In this document: positions 40,403-63,828 of the stretch, one piece after another
How positions within the stretch are numbered: position 1 is the stretch's first letter
How the letters are laid out: each line of letters opens with the position of its first letter
Source of the DNA: a virus
Lineage: Duplodnaviria > Heunggongvirae > Uroviricota > Caudoviricetes
Direction: 5' to 3' (one strand)
Length of the DNA stretch: 64,000 nucleotides
IMG/VR virus record: IMGVR_UViG_3300025682_000004
The notes under the pieces: generated by a model
Databases searched by the model: none
The model's input: only the letters and a program-made list of their open reading frames with translations
Told to the model about the DNA's origin: nothing
Program-made: the position numbers and the translations under genes

Positions 40403-41098
40403 ATGAGCAGAATATTACGAAAAGGTGATATTGGTTTTGGTATATTAATTGAAAATGATGCAGGATTTATAACACACGAATTAAACAATAATATACTAAA
40501 TGAAGATTTTAAAATAAACCCAAATGAACCAATTTTAATTGATTGTATTTTACAAAAATGGGGAGTTAAAAATAAAAACGATAGGATTTATCCAAAAGAA
40601 GTATTAGTACCACAAGTAGAAATTTATCAGGAATTAATAAAAAACAATAGTTCTGTTTCAGAAGCAGACCATCCTGAGAGTAGCATAATTTCTTTACAAA
40701 ATATATCCCATTTATTAACAAAAATGTGGTGGGGTTCTGGTGAAAACGAAAATATATTATATGGAACAATAAAATTAATAGTAAGTCCTGGTTTTTTAAA
40801 ATATGGTATTGTTTCTGTTATTGGTGATAAAATTCTTTTATATTTACAAAATAAAATAAGATTGGGTATATCTAGTAGAGGTGTTGGTAGTTTAAAAGAA
40901 ATAAATGGTGAAAATATTGTACAAAATGATTTTGAATTAATTGGATTTGATTTGGTGGCAACACCAAGTACCCCTGGTGCATATTTATTTCCAAAAAGAC
41001 ATGATGATAAAAATTTTAATGAATTTTATGTGATTGAAAAAAAACCACAACTATTCGAAAATAAAATAATAAAAACATTAGATGATTTTTTACTTTAA
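40403..41098 (+). CDS. prohead core protease (T4 gp21-like)
   Basis: WGVKNKNDRIYPKEV ~ gp21 CGVRNRNNRVYPRKV; EADHPESS ~ ELDHPDNS; LGISSRGVGS ~ IGISSRGLGN. Confidence 0.7.
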   Translation: MSRILRKGDIGFGILIENDAGFITHELNNNILNEDFKINPNEPILIDCILQKWGVKNKNDRIYPKEVLVPQVEIYQELIKNNSSVSEADHPESSIISLQNISHLLTKMWWGSGENENILYGTIKLIVSPGFLKYGIVSVIGDKILLYLQNKIRLGISSRGVGSLKEINGENIVQNDFELIGFDLVATPSTPGAYLFPKRHDDKNFNEFYVIEKKPQLFENKIIKTLDDFLL

Positions 41099-42774: not shown

Positions 42775-44457
42775 ATGGGATTTTTAATGGAAAGTGGCGA
42801 AGTTGGTAACATTGGTATTAAACAACTTCGTGAACAAAGAGAAATTACGACAAACCGTTGGGAAAAAATTGGATTACTTGAAGGATTAGATGGCAATATT
42901 AAAGAAAATTGCGCTCAATTATTCGAAAACCAATTATCTCATATGCTTAAAGAATCTTCTGATTCTACATCAAGCGGTCAATTTGAAACAGTTGCATTCC
43001 CTGTTATTCGTAGGGTGTTTGCAAAATTATTAGCAAACGATATTGTTTCAGTACAAGCACTTAACTTACCTTTAGGTAGATTATATTTTATCAATCCAAA
43101 GGCTAGTACACGTGTACAAGATAGTACACATACAACAACACTTGGTAATATTCATACATCACCTGATGGTGCATATGGAAATGCTGCTGAAAAAACATCA
43201 ACAAGTTCAACTAATTTTGAAACTCGTTCATTATACGATGCATTCTATGCAACTGAATATAATGATGAAGGTACTTCATTATTCGATTTATCAAAAGGTA
43301 GTATTGATAGTAAATCAATTACTGGTTTAACTGCTAAAGGTTATACAGCAGGAGATAAATTCGTTACTCTTGAAATCACAGGATTTACTACTGATAATGC
43401 AGGTAAATTGGTAGGTCCTGCTGGCGCACCAATGGATACCGAATCATTCCTTGCTGGATTAAAAGTAACAGCAAATAAAACTTTTACAGCACCAAGTGGT
43501 TATACAAGTGAAAATATTGCAAGTGGAAATCCAATACCATTTAACGTAAAAGTTCAAAAATATGGACAGGGTATTGTGGATAAAAATGGTAAAATTGTTG
43601 TTTTACTTGATGTTCAATATCCTGGTAAAGATGGTTATCATGCATTAACCATTCCAACTGGAACTATTTATACTGCAACATATAGAACATATAGCGACCT
43701 TGAACAAGATTCAAGAATGGCAGAAGTAACATTCGTTCTTGATTATGTTACTGTAAGTGTTGAAACTCGTAAAATGAGAGCAATGTGGACACCTGAATTA
43801 GCACAAGACGTTTCTGCATTCCATAATATTGATGCTGAAGCAGAATTAACTGCATTGTTATCAGAACAAATGGCTGCTGAAATTGACCGTGAAATATTAC
43901 GTGACTTAAGACGTGGTGCTGCATGGACTGCTCGTTGGGATTATAACGGATTAAGAAAAGGAACTAATACTTATTATGGTGTACAAAAAGACTGGAATCA
44001 AACGTTAATTACTAAAATTAACCAAATTTCAGCACAAATTAATAAGTCAACATTACGTGGTGGTGCATCATGGATAGTTGTATCTCCTGAAGTTTCTGCT
44101 GTTTTTGATGACTTAGAATATTTCCACGTTTCAAATGCTTCACCTGAACAAGATAAGTATAATATGGGTATTGAAAAAATTGGTACAATAGGTGGACGTT
44201 ATGTTGTTTACCGTGACCCATATTCAGCACCTAATACTGTTCTTATTGGACATAAAGGAACTAGCATATTGGAAACCGGCTATATTTATGCACCATATAT
44301 ACCTATGCAATTAACACCTGTAATGTATAATCCATTTGATTTTACACCAATTCGTGGTATTTTAACACGTTATGCTAAGAAAATGGTTCTAAACCGTTAC
44401 TATGGTAAAATCTTATGTGATGGATTAACAACATTTGGTGTTGGTGATTTATCCTAG
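42775..44457 (+). CDS. major capsid protein (T4 gp23-like)
   Basis: ETVAFPVIRRVFAKLLANDIVSVQALNLPLGRLYF ~ gp23 GPAVMGMVRRAIPNLIAFDICGVQPMNSPTGQVFAL; RKMRAMWTPELAQDVSAFHNIDAEAEL ~ KSRQLKAAYSIELAQDLRAVHGMDADAEL. Confidence 0.8.
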   Translation: MGFLMESGEVGNIGIKQLREQREITTNRWEKIGLLEGLDGNIKENCAQLFENQLSHMLKESSDSTSSGQFETVAFPVIRRVFAKLLANDIVSVQALNLPLGRLYFINPKASTRVQDSTHTTTLGNIHTSPDGAYGNAAEKTSTSSTNFETRSLYDAFYATEYNDEGTSLFDLSKGSIDSKSITGLTAKGYTAGDKFVTLEITGFTTDNAGKLVGPAGAPMDTESFLAGLKVTANKTFTAPSGYTSENIASGNPIPFNVKVQKYGQGIVDKNGKIVVLLDVQYPGKDGYHALTIPTGTIYTATYRTYSDLEQDSRMAEVTFVLDYVTVSVETRKMRAMWTPELAQDVSAFHNIDAEAELTALLSEQMAAEIDREILRDLRRGAAWTARWDYNGLRKGTNTYYGVQKDWNQTLITKINQISAQINKSTLRGGASWIVVSPEVSAVFDDLEYFHVSNASPEQDKYNMGIEKIGTIGGRYVVYRDPYSAPNTVLIGHKGTSILETGYIYAPYIPMQLTPVMYNPFDFTPIRGILTRYAKKMVLNRYYGKILCDGLTTFGVGDLS

Positions 44458-44545: not shown

Positions 44546-46003
44546 ATGGAAGCACACCAACATAAAATTAGAATAAAAAAATCAAAAGAAGAAATATTAG
44601 ATTTTAATTATAAAAACATTTCTTTAGATAATACAGAAATTAAATTAATTGATAAAAACACTGCAAGTAAAATTATAATAGAATATGAATGGTTAAAAAC
44701 AATGCCATATATTGTTAAATATTGTTTTGGTATATATTTTAATACAGAAAATGGTCAAAAACTAGGTGGTGTTTTAGTTTTTAGTAATGATTATACAGAA
44801 AATACTGGTGTTTGGGATAAATATGGATTTACAAATAAAATTTTATTATTAAGCAGGGGTGTTTGTTTATGGTGGACACCAAAAAATACAGCATCTTTTT
44901 TTATTTCTAGGGTTTGTAAATGGTTAAAAAATAATACAAAATATAGAATAATAACAGCAACTGTTGACCCAGCAGCAGGTGAAATCGGAACAATTTATCA
45001 ATCATTAAATTGGTTATATGTTGGTGTTATGTCTGGTAATTATTCCAATAATAAAGAAACAAAAAGATTTTCAGTATTAATTGATGGTAAATTAAGATAT
45101 AGTAGATGGGTTAGAAATAAATTGGGTACGATGAAAAAAAATGTTATTTTAAAACACTATCCCAATGCAATATTTTTACCACAATATAGAAAACATAGAT
45201 ATTTTTATTTTATAGACACACCAAGAAATAATAAAAAACATAAAACATCTATAAATCATTTAATATTACCATATCCTAAAAGAAATGATGAAATTATTGG
45301 CGTTATTTATAAAATAAAAAACAAAATAAACAACAAATTATATATTGGACAAACAATTCGTTCAATAAATGAAAAAATATTAGAATATAAAAATGGTTTG
45401 GGTAATGATTATATTAATAATGCATTCAATAAGTATGGTTGGGATAATTTTGAATTTACAATAATTGATACGGCAAAAACAATTCAAGAACTAAACAATA
45501 AAGAAATTAAATATATTAGTGATTATAAATCAAACCAAAAAGAATTTGGTTATAATATTGAAGGTGGTGGTAAAAATATAATACCAACAAAAGAAACTTT
45601 AGATAAAATGTCTATTTCTCATTTAGGTATTAAACAATCTAAAGAATGGATTAATAAAAGAATTTCAAAAGCAGGTAGTAATGATGCAAAAAAATACGGT
45701 AGAAAAAAAACAAAGCAAGATAAATTAATTTTAAGTAAAAATTCTTCTAAATATTGGTTAGGTAAAAACCATACAGAAGAAACTAAACAAAAAATTAGTA
45801 AAACAAAAAAACAAATTGGATTGTCTGAAAAACAAAAAGAAATAATTTGCAAAAAGGTATTTAAAGTTAATTTAAAAACTAATGAAATTATTGAATTTGA
45901 ATCAACAAAAAAGGCGAGTGTTTTTGAAAATGTTAATCAATCCACAATATCAAGATGGTGTAAAAATGAAAAAAGAGTAAATGGTTATTTATGGAAAAAT
46001 TAA
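44546..46003 (+). CDS. GIY-YIG homing-endonuclease-like protein with unusual N-terminal extra domain and C-terminal NUMOD-type DNA-binding repeats
   Basis: GIY-YIG core at about residues 250-330: GVIYKIKNKINNKLYIGQT...R...E...N. C-terminal repeats SISHLGIKQSKEWINK and WLGKNHTEETKQKISK resemble NUMOD3. The first about 240 aa form an unrecognised domain. Confidence 0.55.
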   Translation: MEAHQHKIRIKKSKEEILDFNYKNISLDNTEIKLIDKNTASKIIIEYEWLKTMPYIVKYCFGIYFNTENGQKLGGVLVFSNDYTENTGVWDKYGFTNKILLLSRGVCLWWTPKNTASFFISRVCKWLKNNTKYRIITATVDPAAGEIGTIYQSLNWLYVGVMSGNYSNNKETKRFSVLIDGKLRYSRWVRNKLGTMKKNVILKHYPNAIFLPQYRKHRYFYFIDTPRNNKKHKTSINHLILPYPKRNDEIIGVIYKIKNKINNKLYIGQTIRSINEKILEYKNGLGNDYINNAFNKYGWDNFEFTIIDTAKTIQELNNKEIKYISDYKSNQKEFGYNIEGGGKNIIPTKETLDKMSISHLGIKQSKEWINKRISKAGSNDAKKYGRKKTKQDKLILSKNSSKYWLGKNHTEETKQKISKTKKQIGLSEKQKEIICKKVFKVNLKTNEIIEFESTKKASVFENVNQSTISRWCKNEKRVNGYLWKN

Positions 46004-46578: not shown

Positions 46579-49500
46579 TTAAGAGATATCTGTCCAATTT
46601 CTATCAAAGATTAATTCATTTTTTGCTCTTGTATATGCAACATATTCTAAATTTTTTTCTTGTAAAAATTCCCAATTTTTTGTTGTTTTCATTGGTAATA
46701 AATCTGGTCTTATTATAAAGACCCTATTTGCTTCAAGACCCTTTATTTTATGTATTGTACTTAAGCAAATTCCTTGAATTTCATCACTAAAAATTAAACC
46801 AATTTTATTTTTTAAATCAACAATACTATTTGATAATTTTGCTAAAAAAAGTAATGTTGTTACTTTATCTTCTAATGTAACATAACCACTATGTTCATTT
46901 GGGTTTAAAATACCTTCCTTTTTTAATTCTTTTCTATATTTAATTAATTCTCTATCCCAAAAAAGAATTAAATTGTCAATAGATTTAATATCACCAATTA
47001 ATTCAATTAACTGAACACCAATATCAGAACCTTTCACAATTGCTTTTTTTTCTTGTTCTAAAAATTCAAAAAATAATTTAATTAATGGTATTGTTGTTCT
47101 ACATAAAACAAAATCACCACTTTCTGCTTCTTTTAAAACATTACCATCCCTTACAATACCATCAGGTGCATTGGGTAGTGCTTTTATATCAGGTACAATT
47201 TCTTGTGCTTTTTTTATTACATTTTTTGAACATCTGAATGACGTTGATAATGGTAGTGTTTTAGTATTTGGGAATTTACTAAACCATTCAAACGCTTTTT
47301 CATCTGCTGCATTAAATCCATATATACAATTATGTGTTAATATATTATCAGCAACATATGTTTCGTATTTATCAATTTCTAAAGAATAAACTAAACCAGA
47401 ATATTTTTCATATTTTAATTCATATATTTTTTGAATGTTGTGCAAATTTGCATTTAAACTGCAAATTTGCATTAAATCTGGAATAATATTAATTGCATAT
47501 ATTTCTAAAAAATTTTGATTATAATCCATATTCCAATTAGAATTCCATATCGGGTAGTTTGAATTTTTATTAAAATCATTAAATATTTTATCTTTATTTG
47601 CTAAATAATAATTAGCATCTTTATATGCATAATACAAAGAATAGTACGATTTTAAAATCCAAATTTTATTAACATCACTTTTATTCTTAAAAATTTTAAA
47701 AAAATCAATCTCATTTCTTATTGTGAATATACGTATGTGTTGAGTTTCATCCATCAATTCAAACAAACACAATACAAATTGTAATTGTTTTGTTTTTTTT
47801 ATTTTAACCAAACATTTATGTTCTGGTGTATATTTAGATTCACATCCTCTTGAAATTATTTTTATTAAATTTCCATTATAATACCTACAACCAATATTGT
47901 TAATTTTACTTTTAATAAAGGAATTACTTTTTCTATCGTAAGAAATAATTAAATCACCAACATTTAAATTTTCAATATCCTTTTCTGTATTATCATTCAT
48001 TAATATTTTTGTTCCTTTAGGTTGACATTGATAATAATCACCAACAGATATTAATCTACCTATATATTTACCAGTAGTTTTATCTTTTTTTATTAATTTT
48101 TCTACAATTTTTATTTGACAACGATTTAAATCTTGAACTTCATCAATAAAAATATAATCTTGAGGAAACATCCAAATACTACTATCTATTGCTGGTAAAT
48201 ATATCATATCAATAAAATCATAATTTTTTCTATCAATTGTTGATTCTTCTAATATTTTTAATATTCTTTTAATATCTTTATTTTCTTTAATTGGTATATT
48301 ATATTTTTCAGCAATATTTGGAATAAATTCTGAATTTGTTGTTAATGTTAATCTACATAAATTAACCATTTTTTTTATATTATTTAAATATAAAGAAATA
48401 TCATCGTTATCATCAAATTCATCGTTTAATTTCCAATTTTTTGATTTTGATTGTATTATTTTATCAATTTTAAATTCATCGAATTGTATTTTATCACCAT
48501 ATTTTCTTTTAATTGCAGACGTACCTAAACCATAAGTTGTATAACATCTAACATATTCGGGTAATTTTGTTTTTAATTCTTCTTGTATGTGTTTATTGAA
48601 CGCTAAAAACATAATAGATTTATCTTTAGGTAATAATTTTACTGCATCAACTATGGTTGAAGTATTGTGTGTGATTGTAAAATCACCCAATAAAAATCTA
48701 CCATTACCATTTAAAGTAAATCCAAAATATAAACCTTGTGATATAATATTTTCTTTTATTTTAAAAGAAAATAAATTATTGTAATTTGTTTTTTGTTTTC
48801 TTTTATATACTAAAGGTAATATGCTAGTATTTCCATTAATGTCAATTTTCCAAAAAATGTTATTTCGAAAAGAAAATATCTTTTTCTCTTTATATATAAA
48901 ACCTAAACTTTCACATAAAAATTTCAAATTAACTATTTTCCTTTTTGAAATTATTGTTAGTTTGGATGTCCTGTTTTTTTTATTATAATAAACATCAAAA
49001 ATACCCGCCAAGATTTTTTTTCTATTTTCAATAGAATTTATTAGATATTTGTCTGGTATTGATAAATGAATATTCTTTTTGTTTTTATCAATATTAAAAA
49101 TAATACACTTTTGAAAATCATCGGAATAAAAACCCTTTTCATATTTTTTATTTAAACAAACACTTGTTTTATTTAAAACAAAAAAAGAATTATCTTTTAA
49201 CTCCAACAATTTTTCTATTATTTTTCTTGTTAACCTAAAATCGACAAATAAAAATTGTTTTATATTATTTTTTAAATTATATCCTAACCATAATCCTAAT
49301 AAATATGGATTTATTTCTGTTTTATTTTCTTGAAATTCAACAATGGATTTTTTTAATTTAATATTTTTTAAATAACCATTCCATTTTTTTGAATATTTGA
49401 GTTCATTTAGTGGTGTATCTAACAAAATTTTAGAAATTTCATTGTAATGTGTAATTACATGAACATCATTACAAACCCAAGAATATCCTATTTCATTTTT

Positions 49501-49749
49501 TATTTTATATAGTTTACCATATCCAATATTTTTATTCAATACTTTACGAGGCGATGAATCATCACCCATTAAAAAATCACCAATTTTTATATCTTGAACC
49601 CTTTTTATTGTTCCATCATACATCAATACTGGTGTATCATATCCAAGACATTTACCTGTACCAGCATATGCTTTTATTAAAATATTTTCAGGTCTTTTTT
49701 TTGTAAATAAAAATATTCTTTCTTGTTCTTTTGTTGGTTTATTAATCAT
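46579..49749 (-). CDS. SF1 DNA helicase (Dda/UvrD-like) precursor containing two inteins
   Basis: Exteins join to give Walker A AYAGTGK|TSTIV and motif III VGDYYQ|CIYGFNAA (compare UvrD VGDDDQSIYGWRGA). The C-terminus has LSTIHKIKGLEAN and YVAYTRAKN (motifs V/VI). The predicted mature size is about 494 aa. Confidence 0.7.
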   Translation of the reverse strand: MINKPTKEQERIFLFTKKRPENILIKAYAGTGKCLGYDTPVLMYDGTIKRVQDIKIGDFLMGDDSSPRKVLNKNIGYGKLYKIKNEIGYSWVCNDVHVITHYNEISKILLDTPLNELKYSKKWNGYLKNIKLKKSIVEFQENKTEINPYLLGLWLGYNLKNNIKQFLFVDFRLTRKIIEKLLELKDNSFFVLNKTSVCLNKKYEKGFYSDDFQKCIIFNIDKNKKNIHLSIPDKYLINSIENRKKILAGIFDVYYNKKNRTSKLTIISKRKIVNLKFLCESLGFIYKEKKIFSFRNNIFWKIDINGNTSILPLVYKRKQKTNYNNLFSFKIKENIISQGLYFGFTLNGNGRFLLGDFTITHNTSTIVDAVKLLPKDKSIMFLAFNKHIQEELKTKLPEYVRCYTTYGLGTSAIKRKYGDKIQFDEFKIDKIIQSKSKNWKLNDEFDDNDDISLYLNNIKKMVNLCRLTLTTNSEFIPNIAEKYNIPIKENKDIKRILKILEESTIDRKNYDFIDMIYLPAIDSSIWMFPQDYIFIDEVQDLNRCQIKIVEKLIKKDKTTGKYIGRLISVGDYYQCQPKGTKILMNDNTEKDIENLNVGDLIISYDRKSNSFIKSKINNIGCRYYNGNLIKIISRGCESKYTPEHKCLVKIKKTKQLQFVLCLFELMDETQHIRIFTIRNEIDFFKIFKNKSDVNKIWILKSYYSLYYAYKDANYYLANKDKIFNDFNKNSNYPIWNSNWNMDYNQNFLEIYAINIIPDLMQICSLNANLHNIQKIYELKYEKYSGLVYSLEIDKYETYVADNILTHNCIYGFNAADEKAFEWFSKFPNTKTLPLSTSFRCSKNVIKKAQEIVPDIKALPNAPDGIVRDGNVLKEAESGDFVLCRTTIPLIKLFFEFLEQEKKAIVKGSDIGVQLIELIGDIKSIDNLILFWDRELIKYRKELKKEGILNPNEHSGYVTLEDKVTTLLFLAKLSNSIVDLKNKIGLIFSDEIQGICLSTIHKIKGLEANRVFIIRPDLLPMKTTKNWEFLQEKNLEYVAYTRAKNELIFDRNWTDIS
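47329..48027 (-). mobile_element. intein 2 (233 aa) inserted in helicase motif III
   Basis: Starts with Cys after VGDYYQ and ends ...ILTHN followed by Cys. Contains a Cys/His cluster (CRYY...GCESKYTPEHKC). Its endonuclease type is unclear. Confidence 0.55.
48664..49650 (-). mobile_element. intein 1 (329 aa) with LAGLIDADG-type homing endonuclease motifs, inserted in Walker A
   Basis: Starts with Cys after GTGK and ends ...ITHN followed by Thr. Internal blocks LLGLWLGYNL and ILAGIFDVYY resemble the two LAGLIDADG motifs. Confidence 0.65.
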
Positions 49750-51679: not shown

Positions 51680-52243
51680 ATGAAAAAAAGAAAACAATTT
51701 ATTGACCTAGAATCAAATCGAATGGGTTTATTTATGAACAATAATTCATTTGATTTGGATATTATGTATGGTAGAAATTATTTACAAACAGATAATGCTC
51801 AAGAAATTATACTATATAAAATAAATGTTATTGAAAGTAAAACACATGACCTTTATGGTCAAGCAAAAGCAAAAGATAAAAAATATTTACCACCAGTAAG
51901 ATTGTCCGTTATGGTTAATGTTGAACAAAGTAAGCAAGAATATTATGGTAATAATCAAAGCGGTATTGTTCGTGATGATACGGGTAGTTTGATTTTTGGT
52001 GTTTATTTAAAAGAATTGGAAGATAAAAAAATTGATATTGATAGGGGCGATATTGTTATGTATAACATGAGTGGTGAAAAAAATAGATTTTATGAAGTTG
52101 AAAATGCTAATAATGTTACCGATGAAACAACTAAAACAATTGGTGGATTTAAACCATATTGGAAACGTGTAACGGCAGTTCCAGTGCGTAGTGATGTTGT
52201 CGCATTATTCGAAGGTGGTGAACATGGAGAATTTAGAGTTTAA
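51680..52243 (+). CDS. hypothetical protein
   Basis: 187-aa ORF with a TATTTATATAAAAG motif 13-26 nt upstream. Confidence 0.3.
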   Translation: MKKRKQFIDLESNRMGLFMNNNSFDLDIMYGRNYLQTDNAQEIILYKINVIESKTHDLYGQAKAKDKKYLPPVRLSVMVNVEQSKQEYYGNNQSGIVRDDTGSLIFGVYLKELEDKKIDIDRGDIVMYNMSGEKNRFYEVENANNVTDETTKTIGGFKPYWKRVTAVPVRSDVVALFEGGEHGEFRV

Positions 52244-52835
52244 TTTTATTTTTTATAAATCTTCTCCAAATAAATGAATAAAATGGTTGCCAATCGTTAA
52301 ACTCAACAATACAAATCTCACCATTTTTTAATGTTTTATTTTCTTTATCATCACAATATTTATATTTTTCAACATCATTCCAATATATTCTATAAAAATC
52401 ATCATCCGTTTCAAAAGAAAGCGAATGATTTAATTTTTCAATATGATTAAAATTTTTTTGAATAAAATTATCTCTACAATCTATTGCAAATAAACTATTA
52501 AATGTTGGTGATGATTTAATAAATAACGAAAAATTATTACCGTAATCTTTTCTTGCTATTAAATTTAGTGCCTTCCAATATGTTCTAGGTAATTCATAAT
52601 CCCATTCTTTTTGTGTTGTGGCATATTCACATATCAATTTCTTTTTTCTATCACCACTAATTTGTATTAATATAATATCGTTTTTATTGTATTGATTTTC
52701 ACATTGAATTTCAAAAAAAATACCACATTTAACAAAAAAAAGTGGCATGTTTTTATTCAAATAATGACACATTATAAATTCATTTTGATGATTAATTTTA
52801 TAATATTCATCAACCGCATTATAATTTTTCCCCAT
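52233..52835 (-). CDS. hypothetical protein
   Basis: 200-aa ORF. Confidence 0.3.
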   Translation of the reverse strand: MGKNYNAVDEYYKINHQNEFIMCHYLNKNMPLFFVKCGIFFEIQCENQYNKNDIILIQISGDRKKKLICEYATTQKEWDYELPRTYWKALNLIARKDYGNNFSLFIKSSPTFNSLFAIDCRDNFIQKNFNHIEKLNHSLSFETDDDFYRIYWNDVEKYKYCDDKENKTLKNGEICIVEFNDWQPFYSFIWRRFIKNKIKL

Positions 52836-53076
52836 TATTTAACAAATGTTTATTCTTAATTTTATTCAATTCTTCTGATAATATTTTGTGTTGGTCTTCT
52901 GATTGAATACCTAAATCATCACCAAATTCAATGAAAATATCAATAACAAATTTAATATATTCTTTTTCTTTATTAGATAAATAAATGCTTTTTTTTATAA
53001 AAAGAAATAATCCTATTGAAAGAAATAGAATTATTAATATTAATAAAATAATTAATATAATGCATATTATTGTCAT
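52819..53076 (-). CDS. small membrane protein
   Basis: 85 aa with an N-terminal strongly hydrophobic 25-residue segment. Confidence 0.3.
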   Translation of the reverse strand: MTIICIILIILLILIILFLSIGLFLFIKKSIYLSNKEKEYIKFVIDIFIEFGDDLGIQSEDQHKILSEELNKIKNKHLLNNGEKL

Positions 53077-53100: not shown

Positions 53101-54171
53101 TTACTTTTTTTGGTCTTTAGATAATCCAACAAACAATTCAAAATTTATTTTAGAATGTGATTGATAATTTACCAATTCAAAATCATCAATTGTTAAATTT
53201 GTTATATCTTCAAGTGTGTTTAAATTTTTATTAATTTTCATTTTCGGTAATTCAAAGGGCTTTCTTTTTGTTTGATTTTTAATATTTTCAATATGATTAA
53301 GATAAATATGTGTACATCCACCAATCCATATAGCAACACTTGGAATCATATTACATGCTTTTGCCATTAACATTAATAATAAACTCATTGATGCTAAATT
53401 ATATGGAACACCAAGCGCAACATCACATGAACGTTGATACATGTTTAAATCAAGATAAAATTTGGGTATGTTATTTGTTTCCAATAAATCTAAATTTGTT
53501 TCAAATAACATTTTTGGTAATTTTAATTCTTTTACTGCATATTTAATGCGTTCTTTTTTCGTTAATGGTCTTACAATAAAATGATAAAGTAAATGACAAG
53601 GTGGTAATGCCATGTTATTAAAATCAGATTTATTCCAAGCATTTATAATATGATAACGACTATATGGATTATTTTTTAAACCATCAATAACATCTTTAAC
53701 TTGGTCAATACCATTTTGATTTCTCCATTGATAACCATAAACTTTATCCAAATCACCATATGTATATGTTACATATCTTTCATATGGATGTTCTTTAGTT
53801 GGGTTTGGGTTATTAACTTTTGTTTTTTTTCCTCTTTTTACATTATCAATAAATTCATCAAAAGATATTATAGGTGCGCCTAATTTAACATATTTATCAT
53901 TATACCACCTATAGGCATCATCATTCCATATGTTAACATTATTATTAACTAAATATTTAATATTGGTATCACCACGTAAAAACCATAATAATTCATGTAC
54001 AATACCCTTCCAATACATTTTTTTTGTTGTTAGTAATGGAAATCCGTTTTTCAAATCCATTTTTATAGAACTTTTTGAAATTTCTAAAGTGTTTGGCATA
54101 TTAGCCCTACCACTTTCTTTTTCAACACCATTTTTTAAAATATTATTAACTAAATTTATATATTGTTTCAT
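53101..54171 (-). CDS. thyA: thymidylate synthase (ThyA family) with internal insertion
   Basis: MKQYINLV N-terminus, DGFPLLTTKKMYWKGIVHELLWFLRGDTN, active-site region PPCHLLYHF, and YQRSCDVALGVPYNLASMSLLLMLMA all match ThyA. At 356 aa it is about 90 aa longer than E. coli ThyA. Confidence 0.85.
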   Translation of the reverse strand: MKQYINLVNNILKNGVEKESGRANMPNTLEISKSSIKMDLKNGFPLLTTKKMYWKGIVHELLWFLRGDTNIKYLVNNNVNIWNDDAYRWYNDKYVKLGAPIISFDEFIDNVKRGKKTKVNNPNPTKEHPYERYVTYTYGDLDKVYGYQWRNQNGIDQVKDVIDGLKNNPYSRYHIINAWNKSDFNNMALPPCHLLYHFIVRPLTKKERIKYAVKELKLPKMLFETNLDLLETNNIPKFYLDLNMYQRSCDVALGVPYNLASMSLLLMLMAKACNMIPSVAIWIGGCTHIYLNHIENIKNQTKRKPFELPKMKINKNLNTLEDITNLTIDDFELVNYQSHSKINFELFVGLSKDQKK

Positions 54172-54197: not shown

Positions 54198-54671
54198 TTA
54201 TTTACCCGTACTACCAAAACCACCCCTATCTTTTGAATTTAATTTATCAACTTCAATAAATTCAATTTTATTATCAAAAATCCATTTAAGTTTAGCCCAC
54301 CAAGGTGCTTTCATTGTAGGTCTTATTTCAAACTGACAAATTCTATCACCAGTTGATATTTTTGTTGACCTTAATGCAATAGCACTAAATTTCCAAATAT
54401 CGTTATTACCCGAATAACCATCCGTGTGTTTATCAGGACCGTCAACCACTCCGTAATGATTTCCTTGAATTACACCGAATTTAGAAAAAGTTCCACTTCT
54501 AGGAACAACACTACCCTGATAATATTTTGGTAATTTCATTGATACTCCCAATGGTATTAATGCATGTTCAAATTCATTTAATTCAATATCAATTGATGAT
54601 TTTAAATCAAACCAATTACCATGTGATTCAATTTTACAATTAGGATTATGATATTTGATTAAAATTTTCAT
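54198..54671 (-). CDS. dut: dUTP diphosphatase (dUTPase)
   Basis: VPRSGT (motif II), GVVDG...Y (motif III-like with an insertion), GDRICQFEI (motif IV), DRGGFGSTG (motif V). The start is taken at internal Met 33 of the ORF-track product; the upstream 32 aa look like a spurious extension. Confidence 0.75.
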   Translation of the reverse strand: MKILIKYHNPNCKIESHGNWFDLKSSIDIELNEFEHALIPLGVSMKLPKYYQGSVVPRSGTFSKFGVIQGNHYGVVDGPDKHTDGYSGNNDIWKFSAIALRSTKISTGDRICQFEIRPTMKAPWWAKLKWIFDNKIEFIEVDKLNSKDRGGFGSTGK

Positions 54672-54917
54672 AATTTTATTTATCTTTTGTTTTATAACCT
54701 TTAAGAAAAAACATTTTAAATGGAATAAAAGACTTAATAAAATTATTATTTTTTTCAAAAAATTCACTTCTTTGAAATATTGTTATTATTACAATAAGAT
54801 AATAAACAAATAAAATAATTATAATTCCAAAAATAATTAAACTTATCATGGCTTTATTTTTTTTTTATTAAAATTAAATATTAAAAAATTATTCACTTCC
54901 CTTATTTTATTGTTTGT

Positions 54918-56147
54918 TTATTTGTTTTTATTCAAATCTTCCATCTTTTTCATAACATCCAATCCCATGCTAACACCAATCATATCCATTGGATTTGCAC
55001 CACCTTTACCTTCATTTCCCACAATAATCATTGTTGGTACTTTAATTTTAGCAAGTTCAGTTGCAACACCAACTTTTGTTTTATATTCCCATTCAACACG
55101 TTCTTGTGGTGTAAGTCCTGCGGAAACCTTAAGTCTTGCTGCTTCTGCTTCACCTTGACCCTTTGAAATTAATGCTTTACGTTCTTCTTCTGCTTCTTTT
55201 GCCTTAAACATTGCTACTTTATATGCTTTTTCTGCATTAAGTTCTGCGACTTCTTTTTCTTTCTGTGCAATTGTCACTTGTTTAATTTTATCAACTTCTT
55301 GGTCTGCTTTTTCTTTAGCAATTCGTGTTTCACCTTTGGCTTTTTCTGTAATAGCATCTTGTTGTGCTTTTTGTGCATCCTTTCTTGAATCAATTAATGC
55401 TATTAATTTATCATCAAAATCCATATCCTTAATATTAAATTGTGGTAAAGTGATATCATATTTACCAAGCAACGATTCTTTCATTATTATAGGTTTTCCT
55501 GTAGTATCTCTATTTACACTATAATGTTTAATTTCTTGATTTTGACCTGCTGAATTTGTAATAAATTCACTTCTTACTTTAGATTCATATAAACCAAATA
55601 ATGCTTGTTCTTTCGATAATCGAATAAATTCAGAACGTTTATTGGAATATGCTTCTTCAGCAGACATTAATGTGGCAGTATTTTTTAATGCTTCCGTAAT
55701 TTGTTGTTTAATCATATACTGAAGATTAGAATTATTACCATATTTAATATGAAGTTCAATTTGAATTTCTGGAACTAATGGTATTTCATATAAACCAACA
55801 AAATCAATATCGGCATAACCATTCGGAAATAGTACACGTTCAGGTTTAATTTCTCTATTAGTAAGACTTTTATCACCCTTTTCTTTACTTAATATTACAT
55901 CATCAGTAATTCGATATGTAGTAATTTTTCCAAAATTTTGCATATAAGTACCAGGTGTATTTCTAACACTCAACTTACCACTAATTAATGATTGTTTAAC
56001 TTGATAATATCCTGCATTGTTTGTTTCAAATAGTTTAAAAATTGCAATAAGAATTAATGCAGAAATTACAACAAGTGATGTAATCATCATAATTGAACGA
56101 GATTTCATAGCGTTCATTTTTGTTTGATTTTCATTTCTTCTTTCCAT
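54918..56147 (-). CDS. SPFH/band-7 (HflK/C-prohibitin-like) membrane protein
   Basis: N-terminal TM helix IMMITSLVVISALILIAIF, an SPFH-like core, then a long Ala/Glu/Lys coiled-coil (EKAKGETRIAKEKADQEVDKIKQ...). Confidence 0.6.
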   Translation of the reverse strand: MERRNENQTKMNAMKSRSIMMITSLVVISALILIAIFKLFETNNAGYYQVKQSLISGKLSVRNTPGTYMQNFGKITTYRITDDVILSKEKGDKSLTNREIKPERVLFPNGYADIDFVGLYEIPLVPEIQIELHIKYGNNSNLQYMIKQQITEALKNTATLMSAEEAYSNKRSEFIRLSKEQALFGLYESKVRSEFITNSAGQNQEIKHYSVNRDTTGKPIIMKESLLGKYDITLPQFNIKDMDFDDKLIALIDSRKDAQKAQQDAITEKAKGETRIAKEKADQEVDKIKQVTIAQKEKEVAELNAEKAYKVAMFKAKEAEEERKALISKGQGEAEAARLKVSAGLTPQERVEWEYKTKVGVATELAKIKVPTMIIVGNEGKGGANPMDMIGVSMGLDVMKKMEDLNKNK

Positions 56148-56166
56148 TTCTTTATAATTTTAATAG

Positions 56167-56472
56167 TTAAAAATTTTTTGTTAAATTATCTAAATTATTA
56201 AAAATTTCATTTATTTTATTTTCAGTAATATCTTCATTATTTAAACGTTCAAAATATTCATTATCAATATCTTCATTAAACTTTATCAGTTCATCTATCT
56301 TTGATAATGCAAATTTTGCTTGTGTACCATTGTCTATTATAATTTTTCTATCTTTAAATTTTGAATCACTTGATGGTAATTTATAATTTTCTTCATCGGA
56401 ATAAAATTCAAGTATTTTCTTAACTAAAAGAAATAAATTATCATATTGTTCAATTGTGATATTATTCATCAT
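56167..56472 (-). CDS. hypothetical protein
   Basis: 101-aa ORF. Confidence 0.3.
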   Translation of the reverse strand: MMNNITIEQYDNLFLLVKKILEFYSDEENYKLPSSDSKFKDRKIIIDNGTQAKFALSKIDELIKFNEDIDNEYFERLNNEDITENKINEIFNNLDNLTKNF

Positions 56473-56806
56473 CCAAAATTTGATTATTTTTTTTCCATTC
56501 TGAAATTATTTTTTTTATTTCATCAATTTCATTGGGATATAGTTTATACTCTTTATATGTTGGATATTTTTCATTATTTCTTATATTACTATGAAAATAT
56601 TTTCCTTGGGATTCTGCATTTTCAAAATCATCATAAATTTCTTGGGTTATGTTTAAATATGAATATGTATTTCCTTTATTAAAGACAATATAAAGTTTTT
56701 CACTTTTGGGAAAATATGTACTTTTTAATATATTTTGTGAATTATATATTGCATCAACATATCCAATTTCATTATTTTCTATATGTACCTTTTTTTCAAC
56801 TAACAT
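56462..56806 (-). CDS. KTSC-domain-like protein
   Basis: LYIVFNKGNTYSYLNITQEIYDDFENAESQGKYFHSNI matches the KTSC pattern (Y.Y..V...F..A.SKG.YF...I). Confidence 0.45.
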   Translation of the reverse strand: MLVEKKVHIENNEIGYVDAIYNSQNILKSTYFPKSEKLYIVFNKGNTYSYLNITQEIYDDFENAESQGKYFHSNIRNNEKYPTYKEYKLYPNEIDEIKKIISEWKKNNQILDDE

Positions 56807-56946
56807 GTTTTATTTTTTTTATACAAAGATATTTTTAATTTTATAAAAAACAAAATTTCAAAAAAATTTACATTAATATTATATAAATCCAATAAACATA
56901 TAACCATTATTAATAAAAAAATAAGTATTTATAAAAAAAACTAATA

Positions 56947-57711
56947 ATGGCACTTCCAAAAAAAAATAAAACAAAACTTGATATTCGACCACCAAAAATT
57001 GGTAGTGAATACCTTAAATATGGTATGGATAGAATTGAAGAATTGATGAATGCTACCGATATTAAAACGAATTATTTACCAAGAACAATTCTTTTAGAAG
57101 ATATGGATAGGGGTATATTTAACCATATCAATTCAAAAAATCTTAAAATTGTGATTGATGGTAAAATAGTTCCCACATTCTATTTGGATAATGACAGATG
57201 GGGTGAATATAGTAAAACTTGGAAGTTTGTTGACGATGATAAAAACGTACCAACACCATATGTAACCATTAGAAGAATTAATAAAGAAATTGGTACTAGA
57301 TTGGGTAATAAATATTTAGTGCCACAACTTCGTAAATTTAAGTATATGGATGTTCCAATACTTGATGAAGGAGAAGTAATCTATTTAAGATTTAAAATGC
57401 CAGAACCCGTTAATGTTGATTTAACATATGAAGTTGTTTTATTCACCAAATATCGTGTTGATGTTAATCAGTATGATGAACAGGTGTTAAGAAATTTTGC
57501 ATCACGTCAAGACTATATCCATATTAATGGTAATCCTTTACCTTTACTTTTTGAAGGATTTACTGAATCAAACCCAATTGAAAATATTGATGGTGATAGA
57601 TATTTTGTTTCTAAATACACATTAAAACTATTGGGCTATATTCGTGATGAAAAGGATTATGAAATTGTAAAAACCACAAGAAAACCAAGATTTACAACAA
57701 CAATTATATAA
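56947..57711 (+). CDS. hypothetical virion protein
   Basis: 254-aa ORF with a TATTTATAAAAAAAA motif upstream. Confidence 0.35.
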   Translation: MALPKKNKTKLDIRPPKIGSEYLKYGMDRIEELMNATDIKTNYLPRTILLEDMDRGIFNHINSKNLKIVIDGKIVPTFYLDNDRWGEYSKTWKFVDDDKNVPTPYVTIRRINKEIGTRLGNKYLVPQLRKFKYMDVPILDEGEVIYLRFKMPEPVNVDLTYEVVLFTKYRVDVNQYDEQVLRNFASRQDYIHINGNPLPLLFEGFTESNPIENIDGDRYFVSKYTLKLLGYIRDEKDYEIVKTTRKPRFTTTII

Positions 57712-57715
57712 TACA

Positions 57716-58531
57716 CTATTGTTCATTAGTATATGTTCCAGTATTAGGATTAAATTTATTCCCACCTTCTGGATATTTTTGTTGAATATAGTTAGTTTTA
57801 TTAAATGTATTATTAATTTTATCAACATATTGTGATTTTGGTAATTCATAGGCTTTAAATTCAGATAAAATTGGTGGTTGTGGTTTAAAGTACCATGTTT
57901 TTTCTTTTTTATTAAAAATAACATCAAAATACATTATTTCTTCAGTATTATTAATCAACTGATTATTATATTTTGCATAATTATAAAATAATGATAAAAT
58001 ACCCGTTTCTGCATTATAGAAACTTAACTTTAAAAAACAACCAAATTCGTTTTTTTCTTGTTTATTTATATATGATATTGGAACATCAAAAAAAGATAGT
58101 TGTGTATCTTTTGTTGTTGTTATTATATATTTCGGTTTATTATCATTAGCATAGTCAATAAATTTTGTGAAATATGTTCTAAAAATTTTATTTTGTGTGT
58201 TGGAATTAAAACTATCATAAAAATCAAATATAAAAAAACTATTTTGAATAAATTTTGTTTTATATGTCACAAACATTTTATTTTCAAAAGGAAATTCGTT
58301 GTAGTGTGATGTTTTACCTTTGAAATAAAAATAAAATATTTGAGAACCACCAACATTAGATTTTTTAAATCTACAGACTTCTTCATCAATAATTGGATTA
58401 ATTAAAGAATTACCTACATTTTCAACTAAATTATTCAATGAATTAATAATAATATCATTTTTAGAATTTAATTGAAAATTTATATTTAAATCTTTTCCTG
58501 AAAATTTTAATCTTTTTTTATTTATAAGCAT
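57716..58531 (-). CDS. hypothetical protein
   Basis: 271-aa ORF overlapping the start of the next gene. Confidence 0.3.
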   Translation of the reverse strand: MLINKKRLKFSGKDLNINFQLNSKNDIIINSLNNLVENVGNSLINPIIDEEVCRFKKSNVGGSQIFYFYFKGKTSHYNEFPFENKMFVTYKTKFIQNSFFIFDFYDSFNSNTQNKIFRTYFTKFIDYANDNKPKYIITTTKDTQLSFFDVPISYINKQEKNEFGCFLKLSFYNAETGILSLFYNYAKYNNQLINNTEEIMYFDVIFNKKEKTWYFKPQPPILSEFKAYELPKSQYVDKINNTFNKTNYIQQKYPEGGNKFNPNTGTYTNEQ

Positions 58532-60159
58532 GGTTTTCCAATATCATCTAAATTATTTTTTGGTTTAATTGAAGTAATTTCACCGTTTTTTGTATACCAA
58601 AGTTCATCAAATATATTTTTTGTTGTAATATCATTTAAATCGGGTGTAACTGAAAATATTGTTGGTGTAAAAATATAATGATTATCATTTAAAAACGGAT
58701 GGTCTACACCAATATTCGTTAATGGTTCAAAATAACCTTCTGGTAAAATTTCTCTCCAAATATATGTATTATTATTCAAAATATCAATTGCATGTTTTGG
58801 TATTTGTTCAATATTTTCATATATACTATCATTAGAACTAATACTATAAACATCACTGCTTAAATATCTTAATCTTATCGGTATAAATGGATTATATTTC
58901 CAAACTAATCTTATTTTTAAATTATCTTCATTATAATGAAAAGTATATATATTGAATTTTTGTTCTAACAATAATTCTTGATTATAATTTTTTTTATCAT
59001 ATTTAACAATATCAGAAATATATTCATTTTCATTATTAGTAACATAATCACCAATTGATAATAATTTACTGTTTAAAATTTTCATTTCATATTCATCATC
59101 TTCTTCATCATACATCCAAGTGCAAAATTTTAACAATTCTGAATCATTATTACCATTATTTGATTCTATATATTTAGCATATAAATATAATTCAGTTATT
59201 GGGTATTCATCATCTTTTGCAAAATCAGAAAGTTTAATTGTTTTATCAATATCCCAATAATAAATTTGTTCGTTATATACATTTTTTGAAAAACCAGCAT
59301 TATGAATAGTAAAATCGTTAGGCGTTGCTAATACTTTAAATTTTCTTTTAATATTTTGAGAATCATTGTATAATTCAATTTTTATATAGTCTAAATAAAC
59401 TTTTAGGGAATTACCTTTTACTATAATAACTATTTTACGTATAGGATTTTCATTGTCAATATCACAAGTATATGTTTTTTCACCATCTTCTGTAAGAGAA
59501 ACATTAAAATCTTTATAATTATCATCATCAAATTTTAATAAAACCCTAAAACTATCATTTTCAACATTACCATATACAGTTGTTTTAGTTTTAAAAACCA
59601 AAGTACCATAGGATTCTATTATGTTTTTTGTCATTTGAATCGTACCATTTTGTAACATACCACTAGGATGTACTATTAATTCTGCTTGATTTGCTAATGT
59701 TTGTGACATATAAGAATCTCCCTTAACAATAACATCCCATCCTCTTGGATAATCCGTTGGTTCTGATATTACCCAATCATCAAAATTTTCATCAATTAAT
59801 ATTTTTGGCTGTTCTTCTACTTCATCTAAATTTAATTCTGGTTTAACTAAATAAAAATCAAATGAATTTAAAATATTTTTAGAATTATTTTCACTTGGTT
59901 TAAAAAAATCCTTTAATTCATTATAACCAAATTTGAGGTTATTTAATAGCGAAATCCATTCAAATTTACCATAAAATCTATAATTATCACTATTTTCTCT
60001 TTCTTTTATATATTGTTCACTAGAACTAATAGTTTTATGAACATCATATTCAACAATTTCAGATATTTCATTCGTTAATGATATATTATCATGCAAATCA
60101 GTATTTGTAGAATCTATATTTTTTTTATCACCCAATAATATTTTTACCTGTTTATCCAT
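58522..60159 (-). CDS. large structural protein, paralog A (tail fiber/baseplate-type candidate)
   Basis: 545 aa. Shares blocks with ORF 62491-63828: YRFYGKFEWISLLNNLKFGY ~ YRIYGRIDYVSMLNGLKLDY; NSFDFYLVKP ~ NSFKFYVVKP; VWKYNPFIPIRLRYLSSD ~ VWKYNPLIPLRLRYLSND. TATTTATATAAA motif upstream. Confidence 0.4.
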   Translation of the reverse strand: MDKQVKILLGDKKNIDSTNTDLHDNISLTNEISEIVEYDVHKTISSSEQYIKERENSDNYRFYGKFEWISLLNNLKFGYNELKDFFKPSENNSKNILNSFDFYLVKPELNLDEVEEQPKILIDENFDDWVISEPTDYPRGWDVIVKGDSYMSQTLANQAELIVHPSGMLQNGTIQMTKNIIESYGTLVFKTKTTVYGNVENDSFRVLLKFDDDNYKDFNVSLTEDGEKTYTCDIDNENPIRKIVIIVKGNSLKVYLDYIKIELYNDSQNIKRKFKVLATPNDFTIHNAGFSKNVYNEQIYYWDIDKTIKLSDFAKDDEYPITELYLYAKYIESNNGNNDSELLKFCTWMYDEEDDEYEMKILNSKLLSIGDYVTNNENEYISDIVKYDKKNYNQELLLEQKFNIYTFHYNEDNLKIRLVWKYNPFIPIRLRYLSSDVYSISSNDSIYENIEQIPKHAIDILNNNTYIWREILPEGYFEPLTNIGVDHPFLNDNHYIFTPTIFSVTPDLNDITTKNIFDELWYTKNGEITSIKPKNNLDDIGKPCL

Positions 60160-62490: not shown

Positions 62491-63828
62491 TCATTTAATG
62501 TTAAGAACATCTGCCACAAATTTTATACAATCAGATTCCCCCAACCCTTTATAAAAATAAAAATCTGAGTCGGGTTGGTTTGTGGGAATACCATATAATT
62601 TTCCACCATTTAATGGGCAAGCAACACCACCCCATGATGGTGAGTTTACACCGTTACGATAATAACCCAATTCATTAACATCGATATTAAAAACATCATC
62701 AATATATTTAAATCCCTTTTTCTCTATACTATTAAAACTTTTAATATGGTTTTCTGGTACTTCAATAAAATCAGTCCAGTGTAAATTGGGTCGTATAAAT
62801 CTTTTGGTATTGATATCATTTGCTGCAATTGGATAACTATTATCATTAATCGATTGAACTTCACCGCTAATTTCTGTATCATAACTAAAACATGTGTTAA
62901 TTCTTAACCCACCAAATTCAGCACTACTAACATAACTCAAATCATTACTTAAATATCTCAACCTAAGTGGTATTAGTGGGTTATATTTCCAAACAATACC
63001 TGAATTTTGATTATCTGAATTTTTATGATATGTTTTTATGTATAAAGTCTGAGTACTGTTAATGTTTTGTTTAAATTCATTTTCGTTATAATAAACCAAA
63101 TCACCAATAATTTGATTTGTATTTGTTTCAACAACGTCACCAACATTAAAATTAAAATCAAATGTCGATGGTAATGTCATTTTTTTCTCAATACCATTAG
63201 ATTCCCATGTTGTACCAGAAATAGTTTCAGATGTATTAAATCCGTTACTTTTTTTAATATAACAAGGCATTAAATATAATTCAGTTAATGGAAATCCTAA
63301 ATAATCATACATTTCTCTAACATCAATGTCAATATTAACATTAAACGCATAAACTTGCTTACCAAAAATATTATTTGTAAAACCTGCAGGATATATATCA
63401 ATATTGTTTGGTGTTGCGATTACTTCAAATTTTCTAATATATTTTTTTATTGATAAATCACTACTATATAATGAAACATATTCTTTATCAGATGGTTTAA
63501 CTACATAAAATTTAAATGAATTAAAAATGTTTTTAGAATTATCAATTCTATATTCATAATAATCTGTTGTATATTTATAATCAAGTTTTAAACCATTTAG
63601 CATTGAAACATAATCAATTCTACCATATATTCTATAAATTGCATTTCTTTCACGTTCAGTTACGTATGTTTCAGATGCGTTCACGTTACTATAAACATCA
63701 TATTCGGTTAATTCAGACTCTCTATTAATTAGTTGAATCTTATCAACGTTATCAACATTAACCGATTTAACGTGTTTAAATTTTCCTAATAATATTTCAA
63801 CCTCTTTTTCCATATACAATAAATACAA
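62491..63828 (-). CDS. large structural protein, paralog B
   Basis: 445 aa, paralogous to 58522-60159 (see the blocks listed there). Confidence 0.4.
   Translation of the reverse strand: MYLLYMEKEVEILLGKFKHVKSVNVDNVDKIQLINRESELTEYDVYSNVNASETYVTERERNAIYRIYGRIDYVSMLNGLKLDYKYTTDYYEYRIDNSKNIFNSFKFYVVKPSDKEYVSLYSSDLSIKKYIRKFEVIATPNNIDIYPAGFTNNIFGKQVYAFNVNIDIDVREMYDYLGFPLTELYLMPCYIKKSNGFNTSETISGTTWESNGIEKKMTLPSTFDFNFNVGDVVETNTNQIIGDLVYYNENEFKQNINSTQTLYIKTYHKNSDNQNSGIVWKYNPLIPLRLRYLSNDLSYVSSAEFGGLRINTCFSYDTEISGEVQSINDNSYPIAANDINTKRFIRPNLHWTDFIEVPENHIKSFNSIEKKGFKYIDDVFNIDVNELGYYRNGVNSPSWGGVACPLNGGKLYGIPTNQPDSDFYFYKGLGESDCIKFVADVLNIK

Follow-up and report, generated by a model that had tools for sequence, protein, structure and literature searches.

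In bacteria, the SPFH proteins HflK and HflC form a cage around the FtsH protease and modulate it. A cage architecture is known from the HflK/C, prohibitin, erlin, stomatin, flotillin and QmcA-YbbJ assemblies; the stomatin and flotillin types face the cytoplasm. Here we analysed an SPFH gene carried by a phage. The window (the whole stretch of DNA analysed, 64,000 nucleotides (nt) long, from the IMG/VR virus record IMGVR_UViG_3300025682_000004, Caudoviricetes) encodes on its minus strand an SPFH/Band-7 membrane protein of 409 amino acids (aa) (54918-56147), identified by Pfam Band_7 and by its AlphaFold/Foldseek fold. Beside it, also on the minus strand, lies a gene for a single-pass membrane protein of 57 aa (54676-54849), identified with a hidden Markov model (HMM) of a partner family that we call class B. 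We give roughly even chances to the reading that the SPFH gene and the adjoining 57-aa gene are one functional unit forming an HflK/C-like cage, with the rest of the span unlinked to them. A broader proposal, which we put forward tentatively, is that there is a so far undescribed, NfeD-independent two-component SPFH system in bacteria (Gammaproteobacteria, Spirochaetota and others) and large phages, and that phages have repeatedly swapped the class A partner for a class B partner (motif 'IYY...IPFYYW'), re-aiming the cage at a client of their own, for instance to trap or shield FtsH or some other inner-membrane machine in the infected cell. The analysis narrows the unit to be studied to the SPFH gene and its tiny membrane partner, a handle for experiments.

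A preliminary description of this region had placed a membrane-anchored SPFH protein with a long coiled-coil between a dUTPase and a KTSC-domain protein, adjoining a thymidylate synthase in a phage. These identities were borne out by profiles and fold, and the genes named lie on the minus strand at or near where they had been placed, with the dUTPase start moved. The Pfam search recovered both KTSC (8e-16) and Band_7, the latter marginally (PF01145, 24.3 bits vs. a cutoff of 23.6, covering only profile positions 75-174, the C-terminal half). On the window sequence by itself the Band_7 call is marginal. At the level of the family and by fold the SPFH assignment is firm. A database search gave 384 SPFH relatives of ~390-420 aa, and Band_7 was matched by 49 of the 63 relatives aligned (best 3.6e-16). 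The window protein matches phrog_11908 (3.6e-37), which has no assigned function, and no NCBIfam model matches it or three bacterial relatives. Searched against 1.84 billion representative proteins, the family profile found 1,655 at E<=1e-3, 1,176 at 1e-10 and 656 at 1e-30. The subfamily is compact, divergent and without a curated name.

Sequence searches of the PDB were marginal (phmmer, prohibitin-2 at E 0.04; family profile, HflC at E 0.05), and a fold search was therefore needed. The AlphaFold single-chain model, built on the family alignment, has a mean predicted local distance difference test (pLDDT) score of 84. The N-terminal helix (residues 3-39) holds the membrane segment and is followed by an alpha/beta SPFH domain (40-245). 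Next come one unbroken helix of ~97 residues (246-342) and a short one (348-365), and the chain closes with a stretch modelled at low confidence (366-385) and a C-terminal helix (386-407). All 44 of the top 44 Foldseek matches in the PDB were SPFH-fold proteins: HflK/C first (7.7e-10), followed by erlin, prohibitin, QmcA, stomatin, flotillin, major vault protein and then isolated SPFH domains. The best of them (HflK/C, erlin, prohibitin) are the type-II, outward-facing members. The long helical region pointed out in the preliminary description matched SPFH cage proteins in this search, not a structural tail protein. The transmembrane helix spans approximately residues 19-37 (the best 19-residue window starts at residue 19, mean Kyte-Doolittle 2.88) and the N-terminus is positively charged. 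A reading of the N-terminal region found no cysteine and no lipobox; because there is no cysteine near the N-terminus, the protein is signal-anchored and not a lipoprotein.

In 41 of 55 dereplicated phage loci, the open reading frame (ORF) that immediately precedes the SPFH gene on its strand was no longer than 125 aa and held a membrane segment (background 8%). These partners form two sequence families. In class A partners (~70-80 aa), the membrane helix at the N-terminus leads into a helical tail rich in Lys and Glu. Class B partners (~55 aa) have a membrane helix that ends in 'IYY' and a C-terminal 'ALIPFYYWFK'-like motif. A class A HMM, built from the partner copies of bacterial genomes only, was searched against 28,940 six-frame segments of 155 loci and gave 57 matches at E<=0.01, each of which (57/57) was the ORF directly upstream of the SPFH gene. 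Partner-SPFH fusions that seemed present in loci L134 and L154 were discarded as artefacts of the stop-to-stop segments, being really separate upstream ORFs. A class B HMM, for which 10 partner proteins from other phage loci were used and the window was left out, gave 19 matches over the 155 loci; all 19 adjoin the SPFH gene on the same strand, and they include crAss001 gp92 (annotated as hypothetical, E 1.5e-7) and an uncalled ORF in locus L072. The adjacency of the partner is therefore strict in phages and in bacteria. Among 796 six-frame segments of the window, the 57-aa ORF was the sole significant class B match (E 1.3e-6; next 0.1), and independent gene callers also call this gene on identical contigs.

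Partners of both classes measure 55-80 aa and match neither NfeD (PF01957) nor any Pfam, NCBIfam or functionally named PHROG family; class B has no family match at all in Pfam, PHROG or NCBIfam. An identity as NfeD or as another named family was consequently rejected. A second partner in the window was also considered. The 85-aa ORF at 52819-53076 (minus strand), with an N-terminal membrane helix, a charged helical tail and no other family match, is the best class A HMM match of the window (E 0.007, 12.3 bits, bias 9.9). It has the class A architecture, but with so weak a match and a strong compositional bias we did not accept it as a class A partner.

Class B occurs on viral contigs only, while class A occurs in both bacteria and phages. 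Class B members fall at three or more positions in a quick neighbour-joining tree (no support values), a pattern suggesting that the partner was replaced repeatedly in phages. Bacterial and phage members are intermixed in the same tree and local gene order varies among phages, as might be the case if the SPFH gene were a passenger gained from bacteria by horizontal transfer and without a role in infection. We regard this as highly improbable: intact, full-length members occur on at least 64 viral contigs and show 27-68% identity with the window protein, the linked partner is kept, and an identical gene string is found on three metagenome contigs and in several independent sequencing runs. Such persistence speaks for selection.

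The partner is the neighbour that is kept, and the other genes of the string are not. We examined ~150 loci with an SPFH relative (64 viral, 80 genome and several metagenome contigs). In the 64 viral and 80 genome loci, no thymidylate synthase, KTSC gene or relative of a 101-aa ORF that lies between the KTSC and SPFH genes was found within ~6 kb of the SPFH gene (0 loci), and a dUTPase was found within ~6 kb in five loci, all from one metagenome. The dUTPase-SPFH-KTSC gene string of the preliminary description did not hold up as a conserved unit, and a conserved operon of SPFH with thymidylate synthase, dUTPase or KTSC was rejected. The gene string is incidental, and the SPFH gene is placed in an accessory region beside two nucleotide-metabolism genes. 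By eye, the commonest viral neighbours are NAMPT-like, phosphoribosyl pyrophosphate (PRPP) synthase-like, NADAR-like, macro, HD and CCA-adding enzyme-like genes, which resemble the metabolic accessory genes of large myoviruses.

The class A and SPFH pair is present on bacterial chromosomes among housekeeping genes (e.g. ftsH, ubiB-djlA, hslV). Its chromosomal carriers are Gammaproteobacteria (Kangiella, Arenicella, Methylophaga, Cellvibrionaceae), Spirochaetota, some Patescibacteria and other groups. In Thiospirochaeta perfilievii (CP035807; locus L074, 5581-9203) the order on one strand is ftsH, class A partner, SPFH. In two related genomes (L081 and L082) ftsH is followed by SPFH; a partner of 70-75 aa lies between them in L074 and L082, and none was called in L081. 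The three genomes are closely related and the adjacency to ftsH therefore counts as a single evolutionary event. It is the only direct genomic link of the SPFH subfamily to FtsH and is suggestive of an HflK/C-like role. A general linkage to FtsH in bacterial genomes was rejected, and the other conserved bacterial neighbours (ubiB-djlA in four Methylophaga-like loci; transporter-like genes in spirochaetes) were set aside as lineage-specific. Two contigs of metagenome-assembled genomes, a 362,763-bp 'Paceibacterota' contig (L105) and a 146,658-bp 'Cytophagales' contig (L076), match the IMG/VR loci L035 and L008 in size and coordinates and are probably phage genomes binned with bacteria.

Next to the SPFH membrane helix, Lys/Arg residues averaged 2.33 on the N-terminal side vs. 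1.22 on the C-terminal side (44 sequences vs. 7). By the positive-inside rule, the N-terminus of the SPFH protein would be cytoplasmic and its bulk outside. In class A partners, Lys/Arg averaged 0.19 before the membrane helix vs. 3.9 after it (31/31 sequences), and the same rule predicts the opposite orientation, with the tail in the cytoplasm. We read the pair as a phage copy of a two-gene membrane module that bacterial chromosomes carry as well, made of a type-II-anchored SPFH protein of ~400 aa and a small single-pass partner. The SPFH protein would be inserted in the cytoplasmic membrane of the host, most of it lying on the periplasmic face as in HflK/C, and, judging from solved SPFH assemblies, would oligomerise via the long helix to form a closed cage around a patch of this membrane. 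The membrane helix of the partner might sit in or at the anchor ring, as a regulatory or client-recruiting subunit. More speculatively, the cage could alter, in the infected cell, how readily a membrane client of the host reaches its substrates. The leading client candidate, on weak evidence, is FtsH, in which case the phage would retune membrane-protein quality control. Equally speculatively, the class B partner found only in phages could redirect the bacterial scaffold to a client chosen by the phage. If the cage of the pair does capture a host membrane machine, this would be a new viral route to taking over the bacterial inner membrane.

Several points weigh against this interpretation. With the opposed topologies predicted for the SPFH protein and the class A partner, the two could touch only through their membrane helices and the short tail at the SPFH N-terminus, and oligomerisation, localisation and partner contact are themselves predictions. 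The class B score of the 57-aa ORF is modest (24 bits, hydrophobic bias 9.0). In the window, the partner gene lies 68 nt downstream of the SPFH gene, while in the closest relatives (L004, L071 and L072) it lies upstream. Approximately 1/4 of the phage loci and several bacterial clades have no recognisable partner. The enrichment of small membrane ORFs upstream of the SPFH gene (binomial p ~1e-33) is uncorrected for the shared ancestry of the loci. Adjacency to ftsH was present in 3 of the 80 genome loci, all of them from Spirochaetales and with FtsH 86-87% identical. Finally, the literature that we found on phage SPFH proteins consists of annotation and speculation and includes no functional test.

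Other phages bring lysis genes into the picture. In crAss001, gp91 (SPFH) is flanked by the class B gp92 and by the two-helix membrane protein gp90, followed by the peptidoglycan hydrolase gp89 (locus L001, 6700-8128). In the Kayvirus phages of Staphylococcus, the SPFH gene mbpS and mbpV lie between the endolysin gene lysK and the lytic enzyme gene tgl, and the 102-aa mbpV product, which has a membrane helix at its N-terminus and a charged tail, was considered holin-like by the authors (PMC7150955). Such contexts, together with weak matches of class A partners to Rz-like spanin PHROGs (best E 3e-4), would fit a function in lysis timing, in which the SPFH cage holds or organises a small holin-like partner, or the secretion of a lytic enzyme, so that lysis is triggered late in infection only. 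We consider this explanation unlikely. The same pair lies among housekeeping genes of bacterial chromosomes, a setting in which a holin function is implausible; in the 64 viral loci, the genes most often seen nearby belong to accessory metabolism and not to lysis; and the spanin matches are weak and fit a common architecture only. In the window itself, the ORFs scanned at 49.7-63.8 kb yielded no endolysin or holin family, and neither the 57-aa nor the 85-aa ORF matched a lysis family (holin or spanin).

The SPFH relatives lie mostly on viral contigs of 100-360 kb, amid host-like metabolic accessory genes, and the literature gives bacterial SPFH proteins envelope-stress or chaperone-like roles (FloA-NfeD; the link between YdjI/SamI and PspA in B. 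subtilis). Both observations would also agree with a general maintenance function, in which the SPFH complex stabilises the inner membrane of the host, or chaperones it independently of ATP, and so keeps it energised and intact through the long infection cycle of a large phage, without a specific client. We hold this to be doubtful, as it leaves the strict linkage to a small partner and the swap to a phage-only family unexplained, and no stress-response context (e.g. psp genes) was seen at the loci.

The preliminary description had suggested manipulation of host membrane proteostasis or the countering of a membrane-based defence. Small phage membrane proteins are a classic format of exclusion functions, and the cage might sequester a DNA-entry component needed by incoming phages, or a membrane-acting defence effector. 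In favour of such superinfection exclusion or counter-defence, one paper speculates on a role in adsorption or DNA entry for the SPFH lipoprotein of an N4-like phage (PMC13239085). Bacterial chromosomes, however, carry the module too, away from any obvious defence context, and our literature search found no paper tying SPFH proteins to anti-phage defence. PADLOC defence models matched neither the SPFH protein nor its 57-aa partner, nor the KTSC, 101-aa, 85-aa and 200-aa products encoded nearby. This explanation appears very unlikely to us. The reading we prefer remains the two-gene unit with an HflK/C-like cage.

The pair lies within a block of co-directional, tightly packed minus-strand genes that runs from 56806 to 52233. 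The first gene of the block encodes the KTSC-domain protein (114 aa; 56462-56806), which has a full-length domain at residues 22-78 (PF13619, 58 bits vs. a cutoff of 25) and matches phrog_3292 and phrog_8113, both without an assigned function. The next ORF (56167-56472) encodes an acidic protein of 101 aa without a membrane segment. There is an 11-nt overlap with the end of the KTSC gene, and the ORF stops 19 nt ahead of the SPFH start, has no match in Pfam, PHROG, NCBIfam or PADLOC, and was seen in identical metagenome contigs only. This ORF and the 57-aa membrane ORF are the two within the span that the preliminary description did not contain.

Beyond the 57-aa gene lies the gene of a trimeric-type dUTPase (157 aa; 54198-54671), which matches PF00692 (34.9 bits vs. 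a cutoff of 22) and phrog_135 (4e-24); the TIGR00576 match (1.5e-16) falls under the strict equivalog cutoff of NCBIfam. Motifs I-V all align with E. coli Dut, and motif III has a 6-residue insertion. The open frame extends upstream to a GTG at 54767, the start used in the preliminary description (54198-54767). The start is likely the ATG at 54671, giving 157 aa, and independent gene callers choose this same gene on the three metagenome contigs with the identical string; this start also leaves space for the 57-aa gene. The thymidylate synthase (ThyA family, 356 aa; 53101-54171) matches PF00303 (2e-88, 296.5 bits) and phrog_160 (1.4e-98). It exceeds the 266-position profile by ~90 residues, for which two insertions appear to account. 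We take 'LPPCH' to hold the catalytic Cys and 'GVPYNLAS' to hold the Asn that specifies deoxyuridine monophosphate (dUMP). As PF00303 covers hydroxymethylases too, this homologue may have a base-modifying (dUMP hydroxymethylase) activity. Together, the two enzymes would supply deoxythymidine triphosphate and keep deoxyuridine triphosphate low. Accessory genes of these kinds (dUTPase, thymidylate synthase, KTSC) are ordinary in phages. The block ends with the 85-aa ORF described above and a 200-aa ORF without a match (52233-52835).

The window has a GC content of ~24%. Its products include a T4-type major capsid protein (42775-44457; phrog_138, 4.6e-65) and a prohead protease (40403-41098), as well as a DnaB-like helicase and another large helicase. 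The closest relatives of the capsid protein are from huge metagenomic phages and from the Microcystis phage Mel-JY01 (~30-33% identity). A DNA-level search of the region against deposited phages found no similarity. The source is a divergent, large, AT-rich T4-like phage, known from metagenomes alone because no deposited phage shows DNA similarity to the region. Gene starts are preceded by A-rich leaders without a Shine-Dalgarno motif (minus strand, 54640-54960 and 56120-56960), which fits a host such as Bacteroidota that is not reliant on this motif. Promoter and terminator scans gave 49 promoter-like sites vs. 46 expected by chance in DNA of 24% GC.

Further features were observed elsewhere in the window. 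ARAGORN found two minus-strand transfer RNA (tRNA) genes, a tRNA-Cys with anticodon ACA (2064-2136) and a tRNA-Met(CAT) (1944-2030); Cys tRNAs ordinarily have the anticodon GCA, and ACA is unusual. Directly after the major capsid gene, a 485-aa ORF (44546-46003, plus strand) resembles Mom-like DNA modification proteins in its N-terminal half (phrog_1384, 1e-25) and homing endonucleases in its C-terminal half (phrog_314, 5e-34), and is either a fusion or a mobile insertion. A 1056-aa ORF (46579-49749, minus strand) has a helicase match at residues 363-1048 (phrog_1967) and weakly resembles a large-terminase family at its N-terminus (phrog_36964, 1.8e-8). Two minus-strand ORFs of 545 aa (58522-60159) and 445 aa (62491-63828) have no family match and look like paralogues by eye, having in common an N-terminal '...LTEYDV...ERE...YR.YG...' and a C-terminal 'VWKYNP.IP.RLRYLS'.

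Compared with the described systems, the window protein is closest in structure to HflK/HflC. Both have the same fold, with anchor, SPFH domain, long helix, short helix and C-terminal segment in the same order; HflK/C is the best structural match, the predicted outside topology is the same, and one clade of relatives has its gene directly after ftsH. By contrast, the window and all the related loci examined have a single SPFH gene instead of an HflK and HflC pair, no NCBIfam model of HflK or HflC matches, the PDB profile search reaches HflC only at E 0.05, and the window family has a small single-pass partner of its own. The window protein is therefore not HflK/C by membership, being a single gene without a model match. 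Prohibitin and erlin are similar in fold and in the length of the helical region, with strong Foldseek matches, and prohibitin-2 also gave the weak phmmer match, located in the helical region after the SPFH domain. They differ in being hetero-oligomeric proteins of eukaryotic organelles, without a small partner gene and with marginal sequence similarity.

The SPFH-NfeD operons (QmcA-YbbJ, FloA/FloT-NfeD and archaeal stomatin with the NfeD protease) are likewise tight pairs of an SPFH gene and a small membrane gene, and QmcA-YbbJ is among the fold matches (8z5g, 4.8e-7). However, the partner of the window family has no PF01957 and, at 55-80 residues, no predicted domain of the size of an oligonucleotide/oligosaccharide-binding (OB) fold. 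The window family is also predicted to face outwards, unlike the stomatin and flotillin types. The window pair is not an SPFH-NfeD pair. If the pair does form a cage that captures a host membrane machine, SPFH biology would also gain a second kind of partner besides NfeD.

Phage-encoded SPFH proteins are already known. SPFH genes were listed in the T4-like phages 44RR, Aeh1 and RB43 in 2006 (PMC1524935). Further annotated examples come from crAss001 and its relatives, some Aeromonas phages, N4-like phages, Burkholderia phage CSP3, Vi01-like phages (gp200) and Xanthomonas phage X1; the Vibrio phage relatives are unannotated, and BFVD holds SPFH proteins of many other phages and giant viruses. 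An SPFH gene in a phage, annotated for twenty years, would not by itself surprise a specialist. Some of these annotated proteins are lipoproteins or belong to other subfamilies, whereas the window protein has no lipobox cysteine and reaches at most 27-30% identity to any protein of a deposited phage genome; it is a divergent addition to the known set. Among them, crAss001 carries the full pair (gp91/gp92): gp91 is a true relative, aligning to 89% of the query with 27% identity (E 1e-19), and gp92 is its class B partner. The Kayvirus MbpS/MbpV pair may be a further parallel, mbpV having the class A architecture. Some cultured Vibrio and Aeromonas phages carry a related SPFH gene, and the same pair is found in bacteria. 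To our knowledge, a strictly linked partner other than NfeD, coming in two families with one of them exclusive to phages, is new to the literature.

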